Translations under genes and position numbers: made by a program
In this document: in pieces, positions 11,528 to 61,547 of the stretch
Position numbering within the stretch: position 1 is the first letter of the stretch
How the letters are laid out: every line of letters starts with the position of its first letter
From: a virus
Taxonomy: Duplodnaviria; Heunggongvirae; Uroviricota; Caudoviricetes
Reading direction: 5' to 3' (one strand)
Virus record (IMG/VR): IMGVR_UViG_3300033549_000065
Location: 64,001 to 128,000 of that record
DNA: 64,000 nt
The notes under the pieces: generated by a model
What the model saw: the letters and a program-made list of their open reading frames with translations, nothing else
Told to the model about the DNA's origin: nothing
The model's database searches: none

Positions 11528-11567
11528 ATATTTAAATATCCAATAAATTTTCATCATATTTAAATAT
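11528..11567. promoter_or_regulatory. Double ATATTTAAATAT box, 28 bp period, upstream of the major tail gene
   Basis: Perfect boxes at 11528 and 11556. Confidence 0.8.
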
Positions 11568-21037: not shown

Positions 21038-21948
21038 TAGTATTAGGTAGTAATGGAATGGTTGGAAGTGCAATATATAAGCAGTTGCAGTTAGAAGGTT
21101 GTGAAAATGTCGTTGGTATTACTCATCAACAGAGAGAATTAGATGATGAAGTTCAAACAAAATGGTTATTCCGTGATGAGCAATTTGATTATGTATTTCA
21201 ATGTGCTGCTTTGGTCGGAGGATTATTTGCAAATAGTCAATTTCCAGTTGAGTTTTATCAACAGAATGCTCGGATTAATGCAAACGTATTGAAATATGCT
21301 CATGAAACTAATGTTAAAAAAGTTATGATATTAGGGAGTTCGTGCATTTATCCAAAACGTTGTAAACAGCCAATTACAGAAAGCGAATTATTATCTGGTA
21401 GGCTTGAAACCTCAAATGAAATGTATGCACTTGCCAAGATTTCAACTATAAAGCTTGCTCAAGCATACTGTAAAGAATATGGATGTAATTATATAAGTGT
21501 TATGCCATGCTCATTAATAGGCTCTAATGATAACTTTGACCCCAATACCTCTCATTTTATTCCCGGTATTATGAAAAGAATGGACGATGCCAAGGTTAAC
21601 GGAATTGGTAAAGTTACTATTATGGGTACTGGAACGCCTCGCAGAGAATTTTTATATGTTAATGATTTTGCAGAAATGGCAGTTTGGCTCATGAATAATT
21701 ATGACAGTCCAGAACTGATTAATATCGGTTCAGGTGTTGAATACAGTATTGCTGAGATAGCAGAAATGATAAAAGGGATTGTTGGGTACGAAGGGAAACT
21801 TGTGTTCGATAAGAAAGCTCCAAACGGAACGATGAGAAAGTTATTGGATGTAAGCAAGATGAATGCACTTGGATTAAGCTATAAGACTGAATTAAAAGAA
21901 GCAATTGAAAAATTATATGAGTGGTATATTAAAAATAATGATATTTAA
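21016..21948 (+). CDS. fcl: GDP-L-fucose synthase
   Basis: GSNGMVG, AALVGG, LGSSCIYP, YALAK, SHFIP, GTGTPRREFLYV. Confidence 0.95.
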   Translation: MEKTSKIIVLGSNGMVGSAIYKQLQLEGCENVVGITHQQRELDDEVQTKWLFRDEQFDYVFQCAALVGGLFANSQFPVEFYQQNARINANVLKYAHETNVKKVMILGSSCIYPKRCKQPITESELLSGRLETSNEMYALAKISTIKLAQAYCKEYGCNYISVMPCSLIGSNDNFDPNTSHFIPGIMKRMDDAKVNGIGKVTIMGTGTPRREFLYVNDFAEMAVWLMNNYDSPELINIGSGVEYSIAEIAEMIKGIVGYEGKLVFDKKAPNGTMRKLLDVSKMNALGLSYKTELKEAIEKLYEWYIKNNDI

Positions 21949-21980
21949 ATATTAAATAAAAAATTTATATATTTAAATAC
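21941..21980. promoter_or_regulatory. Double box, 28 bp period
   Basis: ATATTTAAATAT at 21941, ATATTTAAATAC at 21969. Confidence 0.8.
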
Positions 21981-25670: not shown

Positions 25671-25710
25671 ATATTTAAATATGCAAATAAAATAATGCGT
25701 ATTTAAATAT
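25671..25710. promoter_or_regulatory. Double box, 28 bp period
   Basis: ATATTTAAATAT at 25671, GTATTTAAATAT at 25699. Confidence 0.8.
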
Positions 25711-31268: not shown

Positions 31269-31336
31269 ATATTTAAATATTCAAAAAATTTTCATCATAT
31301 TTAAATATGGAATTTTTTATTTACATATTTAAATAT
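31269..31336. promoter_or_regulatory. Triple box, 28 bp period
   Basis: Perfect ATATTTAAATAT at 31269, 31297, 31325. Confidence 0.85.
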
Positions 31337-37255: not shown

Positions 37256-37295
37256 ATATTTAAATATGAAAGAAAATTTTTGTGTATTTAAATAT
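37256..37295. promoter_or_regulatory. Double box, 28 bp period, upstream of tape measure
   Basis: ATATTTAAATAT at 37256, GTATTTAAATAT at 37284. Confidence 0.8.
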
Positions 37296-43932: not shown

Positions 43933-43972
43933 ATATTTAAATATGGATAAAATTTTTGGCGTATTTAAATAT
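43933..43972. promoter_or_regulatory. Double box, 28 bp period
   Basis: ATATTTAAATAT at 43933, GTATTTAAATAT at 43961. Confidence 0.8.
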
Positions 43973-49142: not shown

Positions 49143-49210
49143 ATATTTAAATATGAAATATTTTAAACTCGTATTTAAATATTAAAATTTTTTCGGAGGT
49201 ATTTAAATAT
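49143..49210. promoter_or_regulatory. Triple box, 28 bp period, before the lysis cassette
   Basis: Boxes at 49143, 49171, 49199; the third sits between an SD and an ATG. Confidence 0.85.
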
Positions 49211-54883: not shown

Positions 54884-54917
54884 ATAAAACAGGAGGGTCT
54901 ATCCTTTGCCCCCCTGT
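54884..54917 (-). terminator. Terminator downstream of the tRNA-like modules
   Basis: On the - strand: ACAGGGGGG...CCCTCCTGT plus TTTATTT. Confidence 0.7.
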
Positions 54918-54974
54918 CATTTGATATATATAATAATATCACCTGTACTGCTTTTTGTCATTAACGGCATTTAA

Positions 54975-55078
54975 TCTACTGTTTTAACTCTCAGTGCGTT
55001 CGCTTTACCACTTAGCTACAATCCCATATTGGAGGGATTGGTAGGACTCGAACCTACGATAACGCAAATGACAGTAGA
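54975..55078 (-). ncRNA. Circularly permuted tRNA-like module B (Y RNA / YrlA-like topology)
   Basis: - strand order: T-arm GTAGG-TTCGAGT-CCTAC, acceptor 3' CAATCCC-T-CCA, ATAT, acceptor 5' GGGATTG, D-arm GCT-AAGTGGTAA-AGC; closed by TGCGTT/AACGCA and TCTACTGT/ACAGTAGA. Confidence 0.8.
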
Positions 55079-55135
55079 GGTCGAGATAATGAACCGCAGT
55101 TTTATGAACTTGTTGAGGTACAACTTAAACTTGTC

Positions 55136-55225
55136 AACGTATGCGTCTGCCATTTCGCCACTCTCTGTTAAAGTCAGAGAGGAAGGGGTTGAACCTTCAA
55201 CGGCTATTTGCCGTTTAAATACGTT
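55136..55225 (-). ncRNA. Circularly permuted tRNA-like module A with long variable arm
   Basis: - strand: AACGTAT, V-arm ACGGC-AAATA-GCCGT, T-arm GAAGG-TTCAACC-CCTTC, CTCTCTG-ACTTTAA-CAGAGAG, D-arm GCG-AAATGGCAGA-CGC, ATACGTT. Confidence 0.8.
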
Positions 55226-55290
55226 TTAATTAAATTCAACTTAAACTTCAACTTGCCTCTGGTATATAAACGCTTTTTCAAGCGGAAATA

Positions 55291-56028
55291 TTATGACAAT
55301 ATAAAATCAAAAATCTTCTTTCCAACGTACATGTCGTCAACCTCAGTAGTATTAGCTAGTTCTCTCGCTGATTTAACAGCAACAGTGAATTTCCCAAGCT
55401 TTTCTAAGATTTCTTTCTTTCTCTCTGCTGGCATTGCGCCTGTTGACTTAATTGTGTCCCAATATCCAATAACCTCATCAAATGAAGCCAATTCAACTTG
55501 TGCTCTGTGCTCTTTAGTAGCTGGTGACAGCTCTATAGGCTTGTGAATTTTCTTTGTCTTATGAGTGACAGAAGCCTCTGTCTTATAAATTCCAGCTTTT
55601 GTGTCTTCTACCCAATCCTCTGACTCATCCTGTATAGGTATGTTTTCAATAAATGAACGGATGTCATGGATTTCTTTCTCTAAAAACAACAAAAATGGTG
55701 TCGGTACATCATTGAGGATAAGTTCTCCATCAATTACGATATCAGCATAAGCTCGGGTATTACCCCAATCCTTAGTAGCTGTGATATCCAACAAGCTTGT
55801 TTTTGCTCTTGTGAAGTTCATCAGATGTTCAATAGCGCTCATTTGAACCTTTTTCTTTTCATTCGGGAATTCGTCACCTTCCTCATCCTTTTTACGGTAA
55901 TTTTTCATGAAGCCATTGAATAAATCTGGCTTGTTTGAAATTCTATGAAGAGCAGTGATTTCTTCATGTACGCGATTTTTTACTTCTTTTTCAATCGCTA
56001 TTACTTGACATACTTTTTTGTTTGGCAT
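55291..56028 (-). CDS. Conserved helical protein of unknown function
   Basis: 245 aa; motifs QVIAIEK, TATKDWGN, P..FLLFLEK, H.AQV resemble a widespread uncharacterised bacterial family (recalled, not searched). Confidence 0.75.
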   Translation of the reverse strand: MPNKKVCQVIAIEKEVKNRVHEEITALHRISNKPDLFNGFMKNYRKKDEEGDEFPNEKKKVQMSAIEHLMNFTRAKTSLLDITATKDWGNTRAYADIVIDGELILNDVPTPFLLFLEKEIHDIRSFIENIPIQDESEDWVEDTKAGIYKTEASVTHKTKKIHKPIELSPATKEHRAQVELASFDEVIGYWDTIKSTGAMPAERKKEILEKLGKFTVAVKSARELANTTEVDDMYVGKKIFDFILS

Positions 56029-56068
56029 AACGCACTTCCTTTCTCAACTTAAAATTAAGATTTCCTTA

Positions 56069-56097
56069 ATCCTAACATACTAATTTTAAATTGTAAA
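56069..56097 (-). promoter_or_regulatory. sigmaA promoter for the 245 aa gene
   Basis: - strand TTTACA, 17 bp spacer, TGT-TAGGAT. Confidence 0.6.
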
Positions 56098-56113
56098 TAG
56101 AAAAAATAAATAA

Positions 56114-56181
56114 ATATTTAAATAGAATATTATTTGTTTTTATATTTAAATATTAAATAAATTTTCTTCATATTTAAATAT
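56114..56181. promoter_or_regulatory. Triple box, 28 bp period
   Basis: Boxes at 56114 (ATATTTAAATAG), 56142, 56170. Confidence 0.85.
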
Positions 56182-57393: not shown

Positions 57394-57781
57394 TTTGATT
57401 CCTCCATGTTATTGTTCTCATGTACTCTCGGGAAGTAATAAAGTCCACATTAGAAAGTCCTGTAAAGTCCCATTCTTCAAGAATTTCCAAAGGGACTTTT
57501 ATTACCTTTCCCTTCTCTCTCAAAGTCATATCATGTATGTCCATTCTATTTATATAAGCTCTTTCGTTAGTTAACCATCGAACATATTCAACATCCACTA
57601 CATTGTTGTATGTATGATTGTTAACATAACATTTGAGTAATATGGAAGAAAATACAGCGATTCCACCTAACCAGAATGCTGCTATGGGGTTATTTATAAA
57701 ACATGCTACAAAAGATAGCAGTAAACACACAATTATAGAAAAAGCAATCCATTTTATGTAATTCATTTTAAATATCTCCAT
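57365..57781 (-). CDS. Hypothetical membrane protein (2 N-terminal TM)
   Basis: Two hydrophobic segments at the N-terminus. Confidence 0.55.
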   Translation of the reverse strand: MEIFKMNYIKWIAFSIIVCLLLSFVACFINNPIAAFWLGGIAVFSSILLKCYVNNHTYNNVVDVEYVRWLTNERAYINRMDIHDMTLREKGKVIKVPLEILEEWDFTGLSNVDFITSREYMRTITWRNQNGNNKKNNL

Positions 57782-60700
57782 ATTTCTGAACTATTTTAAA
57801 TGACTTTAAAATTAAATCTTTTTCACCTGTTGCAATCCATTCCTCCCCGACTTTTCGACAAGCATCTCTCTCATATACTTTGCCTATCTTTACTACATCA
57901 TAGAGGTTTAATATTTGTACTGGTTGCGGTTTTTCTACTGTTGGCTTAGTAAAAAATGTTTCTTTGTAGATTTTATAAGTCTTTTCCTCACCAGTTGACA
58001 AAGAATAACATTTCACTTTTGGTGTATAATCTGTGTTAATATCTATTATTATAACATAATTCGACTCAATTTCAAATACAGAATACATATAATTATAAAA
58101 TTTATGTTCTGCGACTAATTTTTCAACTGGTGTTCTTTTACAATATTTTAAGGGCAATTCCTTTATAAGACTGATAACGTCAACGTTTTTGAACAATTTC
58201 TCTGTTTCTTTTTCACAATGTTTTTTGACAATTTCTTCTGTTAACTCTAATTCAATTAATTTTTCTTTATGTAAATTTTTTCTTTCATAGAGAGATTTGA
58301 AGTTTAAATAAACTTTAAGTAAATAATTAGCATCTCCGAACTCACTGAAGAAATCAAGTTCAATCAAGGAAGTTATCTGAGAAGAATCTAAATCTGTTTG
58401 CTCCTTTATATTGACCAATAAATCCACAAAATGCTTATATTTAATTAGCTTAAGCATAAGTAATTGCTGTGCAAAATCTTTTTTCTCTCCGATGCCCTTA
58501 ACAGAAGATAGTCCTTTATAAATTGAGTTTGTCTTTTTATCAAACATATACTTATTGTAAGAATATCTGAATTTAATAGGGTTTATAATAATTTTTCTTT
58601 GCTTTGCTAACTCCATACCATCCTTTAAATCGGCTTCATTGTTGGCTCGATTTAAATATGCTGTTGTAAATTCAAGAGGGTAGTAATGTCTTAGTCTTAC
58701 ACAAGCATAACCATTCATACTATAACCCGTTGAGTGATTATACCCAAACTGGTACTCAGAACTGTCTTCAATAATTTTAATAAATTGACGGGCTTCTTCT
58801 TCTGCTATTTTTCTAGGCTTATCTGACTTTTTGCAATAACCTTCGAGAATTTTTGGAAGTTGTTCATTAAGTCCCCGAACATCTTTTTTGCCTATGCAAT
58901 TATGCACAATTAATCCATTTGCAACATAATTATGATTATCTTCAACTTCAATATCATACATATTGCAAGTCTTTGATTTTTCAATACTCTTTATTCTAAC
59001 TGGCATATAATCTGCAAATAATAATCTATAACTTGAAACTAAGTCATCCTTTTGGGCGTTTATTTTTTTGGGGGTCATGATAAAATCATCCAAATTTAAA
59101 TCTTTGGATTCTACCCAACCTCTTTGGGTTAAAAGTTTATGATTGTCCGTTACAAATATTTCATAATCGTGTTTTGTCGTAATTTTTACGGAATTTTTAA
59201 CACCATTATTAAAAACATTCAAAACCTTTTTATACTCAGAGATATTATATGTGTTAAAACTCTGAACATAATCGTCTTCTTCAACATTTTTTATAGGCTT
59301 ATAGTCTCCATTTGCCATCATAATTAAGGTGTCTTCATTTACGCATCTCCTCGTAGTATCGGCCAAACTTCCGTCAAATCCACAAATATCGGTAAGAAAT
59401 TTAATAGTGTCCTCTTGATATACGAGGTATCCATAATTTTCCTTTAATAATTCATCAATTTGTTTTGACGGATTTTTATTAAATTCTTTTTTTATTAATC
59501 TGTCCCTATAAGATTTTCCCGAAGGTCTTAACGCAGCGTTTACTATAGACATATCATTGATTTTACTCGGTTTGAATTCTTTTAATAAATCAAAGGCATA
59601 TCCACTTTCTCCTTCAAATTGAAAGACACCCACCTTAGAAACAGTCATATCTTCCCATACATTAAAGTCCCCCCAATCTATTTCATATGATTTTAAATAA
59701 GATGAATTAATGTAATTATAAACATCTTTCATAATTCCAACCGTTTTCAAACCCAATATGTCAAATTTAACATAATTTAAAATGTCAATAGGTTTCATAG
59801 AACATACTGCAACAGGTGTTTGTAAGTCACCATCTTTATAAAAAACACCTAGATTATCTGGCAATGTTATAGGACTGCCTATTATTCCTGCTGGATGATT
59901 GCCCTTTGAAATAATTGTACCTTTCAATCCATCAAAATAGCGGAATATTTCGGGATAGTCATCTTTTAATACCTCAAATTTATGCTTACTTTCATCAAGT
60001 GAGTTTAAAGCTACATTTTTATATTGAGAATTTAATTTATTCCTATATAATTCATGATGGTCAAAATCAATGTTTCTGTATTCATAGTCTAATTCTTCAA
60101 TATTAATTTCTTCAGCAATAATCTTAGCATATGCCTTAAAAATAGCATCATATTCATTCTTAATCTGCATTACAATGTCTAAGTTTAAAAATCCAAGTCC
60201 TCTAGCAATCGTATCTATAGCCCCTCTGTCTTTTAGCGTTCCAAACTGTGCTATAAATGCAGTTTTAGAAGATGAGAATTTATTAAATATCCATTTATAT
60301 ACTTTATCTCTGTCTTCTGGCGCAAAATCCATGTCAATATCAGCAAGAGAAATCCTATCAGCATTACAAAACCTAGAAAATACAGTATTCCAAATAATAG
60401 GGTCAACATCAATAATGTCTGTAATATAAGCAATAACACTTCCACCTACTGAACCACGACAAAATCCATACGGAATATTATTATTGTTGCAATATTCTAC
60501 TAACTCAGCCATAAAAAGCATAAAACTTTCCATGCCTTGTTTTGACATTGCCTCAAATTCTTCCTTTATGTGTTTGATATAATTTTCATCATTTTTATCT
60601 ATTGCATTATTATTACATTTATCTTTATACTTTTTATTTATAAGCTTTTTCCATAACTCATTTGCGTTAGCACCATATAAATTAGGGTATTTAAATGATT

Positions 60701-61547
60701 TATCGAGAGTAAAATCTTCTATTAAATCAGCAAAATAATTTGTGTTTTCTATGGCTTCAAGATATATTTCCTTTGGTAAAGATGCTTGTATTTGAAACAG
60801 TTTAACCAACTCCGCATACGTTTTCCATACTAAATCAAATTCATCTTCCTGCCCATAATAACTGCCTTTAGATTTTTGAAGTATTTTTCTGCAATCAGCT
60901 TTGTACGCACTTGCAGAGTGAGTATCAGTACCAACTATTAGTTTTAAATTATACTCCTCACTCCATTTATATAATAATTTATTATATTCTTTTTGCTCAT
61001 GGTAATTATGGTATTGAATTTCTAAAAATACTCTGTGTGAGTTTAATTTAAACCAATTTAATAAAGGAGTTATAACTTCGTTACTTTTCTCTTGCCATAA
61101 AATTGAAGCCAAACAAGCTGTAGTTATTATTATATTGTCGCTTGTTTGCATTAACTCAGAAATTGAAATCCTTGGATTATAGTAAAAATGTCTATCGCTT
61201 TTGTCTTCAGCAATTCCTTTTGAGGTTGATAGCGAATATAGAGCATTAAGTTCTTTTACGCCATCCAAATTTTTAGCATATAAACAAATATGATAGCCTC
61301 TTTCATCTGCATCTAAAGTTGTGCATAAATAAAGTTCTGTAGCATGAATGTACTTAATTCCTGCTTTGTCACAGTCCATTTTTGATTTAACCCAATCAAA
61401 TATTCCACCATGATTTGTAAAGGCAATAGCTTTCATTCCATTGTCTTTCGCAAGCTTTATGTAGTCCTTGTAATTTGTCGTTGAATCCGCATAACCATTA
61501 CAATTACTTCTGTCGTCATGAAGGTGTATTACTGTATAATTTTTCAT
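57768..61547 (-). CDS. dnaE: DNA polymerase III alpha subunit, intein-containing
   Basis: PHP domain (HLH, FTNHG, GTDTH), GRGS-like CRGSVGGS, catalytic DIDMDF, KFDILGLKT, YQED, C-terminal OB region. Confidence 0.95.
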   Translation of the reverse strand: MKNYTVIHLHDDRSNCNGYADSTTNYKDYIKLAKDNGMKAIAFTNHGGIFDWVKSKMDCDKAGIKYIHATELYLCTTLDADERGYHICLYAKNLDGVKELNALYSLSTSKGIAEDKSDRHFYYNPRISISELMQTSDNIIITTACLASILWQEKSNEVITPLLNWFKLNSHRVFLEIQYHNYHEQKEYNKLLYKWSEEYNLKLIVGTDTHSASAYKADCRKILQKSKGSYYGQEDEFDLVWKTYAELVKLFQIQASLPKEIYLEAIENTNYFADLIEDFTLDKSFKYPNLYGANANELWKKLINKKYKDKCNNNAIDKNDENYIKHIKEEFEAMSKQGMESFMLFMAELVEYCNNNNIPYGFCRGSVGGSVIAYITDIIDVDPIIWNTVFSRFCNADRISLADIDMDFAPEDRDKVYKWIFNKFSSSKTAFIAQFGTLKDRGAIDTIARGLGFLNLDIVMQIKNEYDAIFKAYAKIIAEEINIEELDYEYRNIDFDHHELYRNKLNSQYKNVALNSLDESKHKFEVLKDDYPEIFRYFDGLKGTIISKGNHPAGIIGSPITLPDNLGVFYKDGDLQTPVAVCSMKPIDILNYVKFDILGLKTVGIMKDVYNYINSSYLKSYEIDWGDFNVWEDMTVSKVGVFQFEGESGYAFDLLKEFKPSKINDMSIVNAALRPSGKSYRDRLIKKEFNKNPSKQIDELLKENYGYLVYQEDTIKFLTDICGFDGSLADTTRRCVNEDTLIMMANGDYKPIKNVEEDDYVQSFNTYNISEYKKVLNVFNNGVKNSVKITTKHDYEIFVTDNHKLLTQRGWVESKDLNLDDFIMTPKKINAQKDDLVSSYRLLFADYMPVRIKSIEKSKTCNMYDIEVEDNHNYVANGLIVHNCIGKKDVRGLNEQLPKILEGYCKKSDKPRKIAEEEARQFIKIIEDSSEYQFGYNHSTGYSMNGYACVRLRHYYPLEFTTAYLNRANNEADLKDGMELAKQRKIIINPIKFRYSYNKYMFDKKTNSIYKGLSSVKGIGEKKDFAQQLLMLKLIKYKHFVDLLVNIKEQTDLDSSQITSLIELDFFSEFGDANYLLKVYLNFKSLYERKNLHKEKLIELELTEEIVKKHCEKETEKLFKNVDVISLIKELPLKYCKRTPVEKLVAEHKFYNYMYSVFEIESNYVIIIDINTDYTPKVKCYSLSTGEEKTYKIYKETFFTKPTVEKPQPVQILNLYDVVKIGKVYERDACRKVGEEWIATGEKDLILKSFKIVQKYGDI
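58899..59345 (-). mobile_element. 149 aa mini-intein in DnaE
   Basis: Starts CVNEDTLI, block B TDNHKLLT, ends YDIEV..NHNYVANGLIVHN followed by +1 Cys; removal restores TRR|CIGKK. Confidence 0.92.

Follow-up and report, generated by a model that had tools for sequence, protein, structure and literature searches.

To our knowledge, Y RNAs and the tRNA-like heads that they carry have been described solely in partnership with Ro60, and no factor that binds the head is known so far. Bacterial YrlA is built of a stem, formed by the 5' and 3' ends and interrupted by a conserved internal loop, and a tRNA-like domain (Wang et al. 2018, 10.1101/312249). A conserved Ro60-binding motif, GNCGAAN0-1G (CGAA), lies near its 5' end (PMC4201824; PMC12135203), and YrlA is found no more than 4 kb from Ro60 genes, which occur in only ~5% of bacterial genomes (Chen et al. 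2014, PMC4201824). The YrlA of Mycobacterium smegmatis has a 7-bp stem and is cleaved by RNase P and extended with CCA in vivo (PMC4201824). A Ro60 precedent in phages is Thermus phage phiLo (PMC12135203). Here, we describe a Y-RNA-like RNA with two tRNA heads that is locked to a different, uncharacterised protein, DUF7873. The pair was found in a tailed phage (Caudoviricetes, IMG/VR record IMGVR_UViG_3300033549_000065), whose complete 128-kb genome has direct terminal repeats. The stretch analysed, referred to below as the window, is the 64,000-nt second half of this genome (positions 64,001 to 128,000). On its minus strand, a DUF7873 gene (55291-56028) is followed by a structured RNA spanning approximately 54951-55257. 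The RNA is real and structured, and its genetic linkage to DUF7873 holds throughout phages and in at least 10 bacterial phyla. The pair, which we met in hundreds of phages and bacteria, in most cases with no Ro60, probably marks an undescribed RNA-protein particle.

The 245-aa protein is a full-length member of the Pfam family DUF7873 (PF25283, 287.6 bits, E 1.2e-85, cut-off 27 bits), with residues 4-244 matching profile positions 2-242 of 244. PHROGs and NCBIfam contained no family for it, and Rfam 15 contained none for the associated RNA. We found no paper that mentions DUF7873, and none on a DUF7873-RNA pairing in the literature on phage YrlA, permuted tRNAs and tRNA-like RNAs. Folding of the intergenic RNA beat all 100 shuffled sequences (z = -4.4). 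Downstream of a repeat-bearing leader, this RNA contains module A (minus strand, 55136-55225), a linker and module B with a long closing stem (54951-55107). In both modules, the order of elements is T arm, acceptor 3' strand, short loop, acceptor 5' strand and D arm, and each acceptor stem is a perfect 7-bp helix. ARAGORN called no tRNA in the window, because the modules are circularly permuted, and no tmRNA. Module A is a class-II-like mimic, in which a closing stem (5' strand 55219-55225, 3' strand 55136-55142) encloses a variable-arm hairpin (55200-55214), the T arm (55182-55198), the acceptor 3' strand (55175-55181), the loop ACTTTAA, the acceptor 5' strand (55161-55167) and the D arm (55143-55158). 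In module B, the outermost helix P1 (55087-55093 paired to 54958-54964) is followed by an internal loop in which TCTCGAC (55080-55086) faces TTAAATGCCG (54965-54974), and then by helices P2 (55071-55079 paired to 54975-54982) and P3 (55061-55065 paired to 54996-55000). These enclose the T arm (55041-55057), the acceptor 3' strand (55034-55040) followed by TCCA, the acceptor 5' strand (55019-55025) and the D arm (55002-55016). The 13 ordinary tRNAs of the phage lie 100 kb from the unit, and comparison of the modules with them revealed no obvious donor. Within that tRNA cluster, in the first half of the genome and thus outside the window, ARAGORN called a tRNA whose "anticodon" has an abnormal length of 2 nt (ta; Stop or Leu; G000:C1:20543-20614) and which may be suppressor-like or degenerate.

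DUF7873 is a large family, comprising 2184 clusters at 50% identity, all with proteins of ~245 aa. We detected its genes in 74 GenBank phages, including cyanophages and phages of Arthrobacter, Gordonia, Rhodococcus, Rhizobium, Klebsiella, Serratia, Vibrio and Ralstonia. A search of viral contigs with the single protein as query found no relatives, whereas an alignment query succeeded and yielded 367 relatives in IMG/VR. Every DUF7873 gene in the annotated phage examples inspected was followed by an unannotated gap of 250-530 nt; the gaps of Mimi and Phendrix contain two permuted modules each, as in the window. A blind structural scan of 88 phage loci detected permuted modules after nearly every DUF7873 gene and hardly any elsewhere. 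A strict module pair was present in 63 of these loci, with the first T arm a median of 69 nt past the stop codon and 163 nt between the modules. We also built a covariance model, R1, from 28 sequences of module B and its long closing stem; in the window, it scored 115 bits on module B and 35.7 bits on module A. Loci were sampled as the 80 closest relatives per collection. Of the 72 viral sources, 71 had a full-length R1 match just downstream of the gene and on its strand, as did 77 of the 80 bacterial loci. The bacterial loci came from a set of at least 571 species carrying a DUF7873 gene, among them Streptomyces, Dactylosporangium, Abditibacteriota, Acidobacteriota, Myxococcota, Planctomycetota, Cyanobacteria, Chloroflexia and Deinococcales. 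Each of five complete bacterial genomes (3.8-13 Mb) had exactly one DUF7873 gene and exactly one full-length R1 match, which are adjacent and located on the same strand 135-1500 nt apart. No conserved protein neighbour was found, and the genes flanking the bacterial units were housekeeping genes rather than prophage genes. A sequence-only reading of the locus had proposed a self-contained unit of protein and structured RNA whose homologues should keep tRNA-like elements and a shared motif downstream; the recurrence of the pair in ~150 independent loci, with the R1 matches given above, bears this out. The unit is self-contained and either ancient or highly mobile.

The predicted structure is supported by covariation. 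In an alignment of 71 sequences, 96.3% of the cells of the module B structure were paired, as compared to 37-44% with slid partners; 30 of 31 pairs showed compensatory double changes, and none of 500 shuffles matched the observed score. From the outside in, the consensus of module B consists of P1, an invariant asymmetric internal loop, P2, a second internal loop with a hexamer dimer and a short helix resembling an anticodon stem, followed by the T, acceptor and D arms. The invariant loop has AUC(G/A)A in the 5' strand and UUAAAYGYCG in the 3' strand, and its unpaired nucleotides are kept even in Streptomyces with 70% GC. In module A (module 1), the T, acceptor and D helices covary (32 sequences), and the closing stem covaries between loci as judged by eye. 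In most loci, module 1 resembles a class II or tRNA-Leu-type head; the copy in the window has the variable-arm hairpin.

The only Rfam family matched at the locus was YrlA (RF02553), on module B, with 31 bits and an E-value of 4.5e-4 against a gathering score of 69; relatives scored 24-38 bits, all far below this threshold. The parallel with Ro60/Y RNA drawn in the sequence-only reading is thus apt, as the architecture is the same. Both RNAs have a permuted tRNA-like domain (T arm, loop-capped acceptor, D arm), of which all helices are present and covary here, and in both the 5' and 3' ends pair into a long stem with a conserved internal loop. Both also adjoin, on the same strand, the gene of the presumed protein partner, form tandem RNAs or modules, and occur in bacteria and phages, and the 7-bp acceptor resembles that of M. 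smegmatis YrlA, which RNase P cuts and to which CCA is added. These RNAs might therefore be genuine Y RNAs that are bound by Ro60 (Rsr) supplied by the host or from elsewhere, with DUF7873 as an accessory factor or an effector tethered by the tRNA-like head. This explanation would account for the YrlA matches (31-38 bits), for the shared stem, internal loop and tRNA-like domain (10.1101/312249) and for the CGA core, which is present in the 5' loop strand of 42 of the 71 aligned RNAs. We nevertheless consider it improbable, because three features that define YrlA failed: the Rfam threshold, the Ro60-binding motif and TROVE linkage. GNCGAAN0-1G was present in 1 of the 71 RNAs and CGAA in 11 (the window has TCTCGAC), its place being taken by AUC(G/A)A facing UUAAAYGYCG. 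A TROVE/Ro60 gene was found neither in the complete 128-kb genome of this phage nor in four of the five further DUF7873 phages tested; what invariably adjoins the RNA is DUF7873 and not Ro60, whereas YrlA is reported within 4 kb of Ro60 genes, themselves present in ~5% of bacterial genomes (PMC4201824). The partner gene also differs, encoding a 245-aa alpha/beta protein that is predicted to dimerise instead of the ~500-aa HEAT-repeat/vWA ring of Ro60, and the RNA described here has two tRNA heads per transcript, a conserved linker and repeats with a 6-nt period. The one phage of six tested that contained both genes was Rhizobium phage RHph_TM21B (MN988560.1, 113363-114106; L092/L093), in which a 529-aa TROVE/Ro60-like protein is encoded approximately 5 kb downstream of the DUF7873 unit, within the same tRNA cluster.

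A sequence-profile search of the PDB with the 245-aa protein found nothing below an E-value of 0.4. The AlphaFold2 model is confident (predicted local distance difference test, pLDDT, 92) and has an alpha/beta fold of long helices and long beta hairpins. We compared it with the PDB, BFVD, AFDB clusters, Swiss-Prot models and the ESM Atlas, and VIA-wide. All fold relatives were uncharacterised: 3kdq from Corynebacterium diphtheriae (VIA Z 8.2, root-mean-square deviation 7.1 over 147 aligned residues) and unnamed proteins from phages, which are 150-210 aa long and of which 25% have DUF6847. No Ro60, SmpB, Ku/Gam, ToxN/Kid or nuclease fold was found in these searches, a result with which distant kinship is still compatible. 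When two copies were modelled together, the interface score ipSAE was 0.69 as compared to 0.00 for the best control. Of 30 proteins with structures solved as pairs, 20 attain the mark of 0.69, as does 1 of 23 with structures solved as single chains; the runs shared at least 95% of contacts, with pLDDT of at least 88. The predicted interface is extensive and strand-swapped. These models support an intertwined homodimer, which would be in keeping with the two heads of the RNA. Structure prediction, which the sequence-only reading had put forward as a check, hence gave a confident model and a predicted dimer, and fold relatives that are all uncharacterised.

The shared motif noted in the sequence-only reading proved to be part of a longer repeat. 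The 12-mer AAGTTTAAGTTG occurs exactly at 55237-55248 and 55121-55132, and a copy with one mismatch is located beside the ribosome-binding site (56045-56056). When one mismatch was allowed, these were the only three matches in the 64 kb, all on one strand and within 1 kb; the 9-mer core alone has two extra copies elsewhere in the window and hence is not rare. The leader (minus strand, 55228-55257), which contains the first 12-mer, is made of tandem units with a 6-nt period (AAGTTG AAGTTT AAGTTG AATTTA ...), and the linker (minus strand, 55108-55135) holds the second 12-mer and further hexamer units that fit the consensus ..TCAGATTATTC..CTCAGCATTGCCG.. of other loci. The 12-mer thus represents two units of a conserved repeat, (NARNYT)n with conserved Y-U-N-A-R, around module A. 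The claim that it precedes each module needs correction, since both copies flank module A within this longer repeat. Leaders contained (NARNYT)2 at a density of 16.7 per kb and linkers at 10.3 per kb, as compared to 0.2-0.4 per kb in coding sequences and far flanks, a 25- to 50-fold enrichment. In a single-sequence fold, the two 12-mers pair with each other; the comparative alignment gave no support to this pairing. No leader-linker or intra-leader helix of at least 4 columns with at least 75% pairing was conserved in alignment A3, and for this reason the hexamer repeats look to be conserved as sequence, that is, as putative binding sites, rather than as a stem.

It had also been suggested that the copy of the motif beside the Shine-Dalgarno sequence serves in autoregulation. 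This copy is present here, and the motif is ~13-fold enriched per position at this site relative to coding sequences. However, it recurs in just 13-15% of 157 loci, so motif-based autoregulation would be at best a lineage-specific extra and not a general feature. Within a locus, the longest word shared between the 5' untranslated region and the RNA measured 6.97, only a slight excess over the controls (6.44 when different loci were compared and 6.66 with the reverse complement).

The ends of the modules resemble those of tRNAs. The acceptor stem is a perfect 7-bp helix in 53 of 63 cases. Of 63 module 1 copies, 49 have A as the base next to the acceptor 3' strand, whereas 55 of the 63 module 2 copies have U or G there. 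CCA is encoded in approximately half of the viral copies and in fewer of the bacterial copies, which are mostly actinobacterial. Since a discriminator and CCA would be useless to a closed loop, and given the precedent of M. smegmatis YrlA, we infer that the heads are opened into mature tRNA-like ends. No anticodon stem-loop could be restored by such processing, as the position of the anticodon stem runs into the long closing helix without a 7-nt loop.

For this reason, a permuted tRNA gene was considered and rejected. The permuted tRNA genes of Cyanidioschyzon merolae and some archaea also have the 3' half first, a loop-closed acceptor and ends that pair at the anticodon-stem position. The RNA described here differs from them in having no restorable anticodon loop, no bulge-helix-bulge motif and no splicing-endonuclease context, and in a closing stem that extends into a long conserved helix.

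Tight linkage of gene and RNA raises another explanation, namely that the RNA is a cis-acting 3' untranslated region device of the DUF7873 mRNA, in the manner of MALAT1/mascRNA and viral tRNA-like structures. In this case, the modules would direct RNase P/RNase Z cleavage and provide a protected tRNA-like 3' end, and no stable particle would be formed. The leader begins at the stop codon or a few nucleotides from it in many loci, which implies co-transcription of gene and RNA and also speaks for a cis device. An RNase P cut in module 1 would leave an mRNA that retains a T arm plus an acceptor strand with CCA at its end, and 7-bp acceptor stems with a conserved discriminator suit RNase P substrates (PMC4201824). 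On the other hand, two modules, a long covarying stem, an invariant loop and hexamer arrays over ~350 nt would be superfluous for end formation, and the conservation of unpaired nucleotides from AT-rich phages to Streptomyces with 70% GC favours a trans-acting partner. We therefore regard a cis-acting device as unlikely.

In gene order, the unit resembles two-piece tmRNA, whose gene is permuted and whose acceptor loop is excised. As in the two-piece tmRNA-SmpB system, the acceptor 3' strand and CCA precede the acceptor 5' strand, the spacer between them could be excised, there is no anticodon arm, and a small dedicated protein partner is expected. In contrast to tmRNA, the RNA described here has a full D arm and lacks the G3:U70 alanine identity pair (in the window, position 3:70 of the acceptor stems is a Watson-Crick pair), a tag reading frame and pseudoknots. 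The tmRNA-family models of Rfam gave no match at the locus at E-values up to 10, and neither sequence nor fold searches relate DUF7873 to SmpB. Two separate observations concern tmRNAs in DUF7873 phages. In Gordonia phage Phendrix, the tRNA cluster that contains the DUF7873 unit also has a phage tmRNA (89 bits; L007, 1057-1585), ~1.4 kb upstream of the unit, and Pseudanabaena phage PA-SR01 has a sub-threshold permuted-tmRNA match (L006, 5757-5936; 31.9 bits, gathering score 47).

These features suggested that the modules might become charged adaptors without an anticodon (module 1 by LeuRS) for ribosome-associated or non-ribosomal aminoacyl transfer, with DUF7873 replacing the anticodon arm as SmpB does. 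LeuRS does not read the anticodon. In many lineages, module 1 has a D arm of the tRNA-Leu type (UG GCGGAAUUGGYAGACGC), the discriminator is conserved and CCA is often encoded, and the permuted order and excised acceptor loop parallel two-piece tmRNA. The 5' half of module 1 of a Klebsiella jumbo phage matched only tRNA-Leu genes across 5426 Escherichia coli genomes (28-30 nt aligned at 87-90% identity; the E-values, 0.4-1, are weak). However, neither G3:U70 nor any other tested identity set was present, and there was no coding or tag region; many copies lack an encoded CCA, and module 1 of actinobacteria has a different D arm. In addition, DUF7873 has no SmpB-like fold, and the idea is purely inferential; we view it as a doubtful proposition, with little probability. 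In the record of Klebsiella phage vB_KpM_Centimanus (OZ240615.1; L009, 3507-3590), an ARAGORN "tRNA-Stop(tta)" is annotated within the DUF7873-associated RNA, where it overlaps the linker as well as the module 2 T arm; it is probably no suppressor tRNA but a chimera miscalled from the permuted modules.

The sequence-only reading had suggested a possible anti-defence role and a parallel with type III toxin-antitoxin systems. The RNA could act as a counter-defence decoy that soaks up tRNA-targeting enzymes, or it could neutralise a toxic protein that cleaves the motif. The unit often lies within phage tRNA clusters (Mimi, Phendrix, NiceHouse, Keelan and Rhizobium phages), and a short repeated motif flanks the modules. 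Like ToxIN and AbiEi-like systems with RNA antitoxins, it is self-contained, is found on mobile elements, and has a protein gene beside a repeat-bearing RNA. Type III systems differ in having an array of identical 34-36-nt repeats, whereas here the protein gene comes before the RNA, only degenerate units with a 6-nt period are present, the RNA has a complex tRNA-like fold and is not an array cut into identical units, and no nuclease, endoribonuclease or ToxN/Kid-like fold was found in the fold searches. The anticodon loop is the usual target of PrrC, RloC, PARIS or VapC-type enzymes, and the modules have none. The unit also occurs in at least 571 bacterial species, in ordinary chromosomal contexts (Streptomyces, Acidobacteriota, Myxococcota and others), as a widespread single copy among housekeeping genes where inspected. 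Neither role holds up well against these observations, and we consider both very improbable.

We favour a Ro60-independent particle in which a DUF7873 dimer and the double tRNA-mimic RNA are direct partners, with a confidence of about 0.5 in this partnership. One transcription unit would produce the DUF7873 protein and a 3' non-coding RNA of ~310-370 nt, of YrlA-type build with two heads that mimic tRNA. The DUF7873 homodimer would be the dedicated protein partner of this RNA and may recognise the AUC(G/A)A/UUAAAYG loop of the module B stem, the YUNAR repeats around module A, or both. RNase P, together with 3' trimming or CCA addition, would open the 7-bp acceptor stems, as in M. smegmatis YrlA, giving a nicked, base-paired particle with tRNA-like CCA ends. 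Its heads might recruit or occupy tRNA-binding factors, and by analogy with Ro60/Y RNA, the particle may function in RNA/tRNA surveillance or translation control. Phages would carry the unit within their tRNA and RNA-maintenance toolkit. A more specific form of this model, which appears quite unlikely, is that a symmetric DUF7873 dimer holds a nicked three-piece RNA with two CCA-bearing ends, at least one of which (the tRNA-Leu-like module 1) is aminoacylated, and that this particle engages the translation or tRNA-quality-control machinery directly.

Several observations weigh against a DUF7873-RNA particle. The tight linkage of gene and RNA could reflect a cis role for the mRNA instead of a particle, and the occurrence of both the DUF7873 unit and a TROVE gene in RHph_TM21B leaves room for Ro60 involvement. 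DUF7873 has no recognisable RNA-binding fold, its structural relatives in the fold searches being uncharacterised, and its slight acidity (pI 5.9, family median 6.3) counts against a generic RNA binder. The RNA is reduced in distant relatives, which are under-sampled in a set of closest relatives, and R1 scores are weak for Klebsiella and Pseudanabaena phages. The two-headed form is not universal, because Vibrio phage D472 (L010, 3256-3560) has kept the hexamer leader (AAACTA AAACTC AAACTA) and contains a single permuted module.

The remaining parts of the unit in the window were also examined, and the box array, promoter, gene, hairpin, modules, terminator and 12-mers listed in the sequence-only reading were all found where it had placed them. 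Upstream of the gene on the minus strand, a sigma-70-type promoter-like site (56069-56097) consists of TTTACA, a 17-nt spacer and TG-n-TAGGAT, and matches 9 of 12 consensus positions. It is followed by the 5' untranslated region, in which the hexamer-motif copy AATTTTAAGTTG (56045-56056) precedes the ribosome-binding site GAAAGGAAG (together 56033-56056). Directly 3' of the stop codon is a GC hairpin, CGCTT-GAAA-AAGCG (minus strand, 55271-55284), which is terminator-like but has a weak T run. This hairpin may serve in attenuation, or else in processing or stabilisation, and similar ones occur 3' of the DUF7873 stop codon at loci L004, L007, L010 and L154. An intrinsic terminator with a GC-rich stem and TTTTATTT (minus strand, 54884-54917) closes the unit. 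The neighbouring genes encode a DnaE-type polymerase, with small open reading frames (upstream), and a RecU-type Holliday junction resolvase (downstream). Based on the translation, the 1259-aa polymerase frame (minus strand, 57768-61547) has a candidate intein-like insertion, CVNEDT...VHNC, flanked by polymerase sequence. A search of sequencing runs for words from the locus found no RNA run and one lake-water DNA run with a small share (0.11).

Further upstream, three copies of the palindromic box ATATTTAAATAT are arranged with a 28-bp period (minus strand, 56114-56181). This box has 40 matches in the window as compared to 0.65 expected, with arrays at ~14 sites; it is therefore a phage-wide regulatory signature (operator or promoter) and is not peculiar to the DUF7873 operon. 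Intergenic arrays of 1-3 copies with the 28-bp period were located at 119-186, 11528-11567, 13562, 18830, 21941-21979 and 25671-25710, and further intergenic sites at 31269-31336, 37256-37295, 43933-43972, 49143-49210, 51242 and 56114-56181. These arrays are probably the operator/promoter signature of a phage-encoded regulator that marks out transcription units.

DUF7873 is thus a broad family: at 50% identity it has more than 2000 clusters, and its members come from no fewer than 571 species of bacteria and from several hundred phage contigs. Annotation pipelines overlook the associated RNA or take parts of it for odd tRNAs or small open reading frames. Genetically tractable carriers include Streptomyces and cultured phages of Gordonia, Arthrobacter, Rhodococcus, Klebsiella and Vibrio. 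In these organisms, the purpose of tRNA mimicry, the processing and charging of the heads and the placement of the unit inside the tRNA clusters of large phages become testable questions. If the aminoacylated form of the particle is correct, it would add a third class to the particles that mimic tRNA, next to tmRNA-SmpB and Ro60-Y RNA, one that large phages would import together with their tRNA sets.

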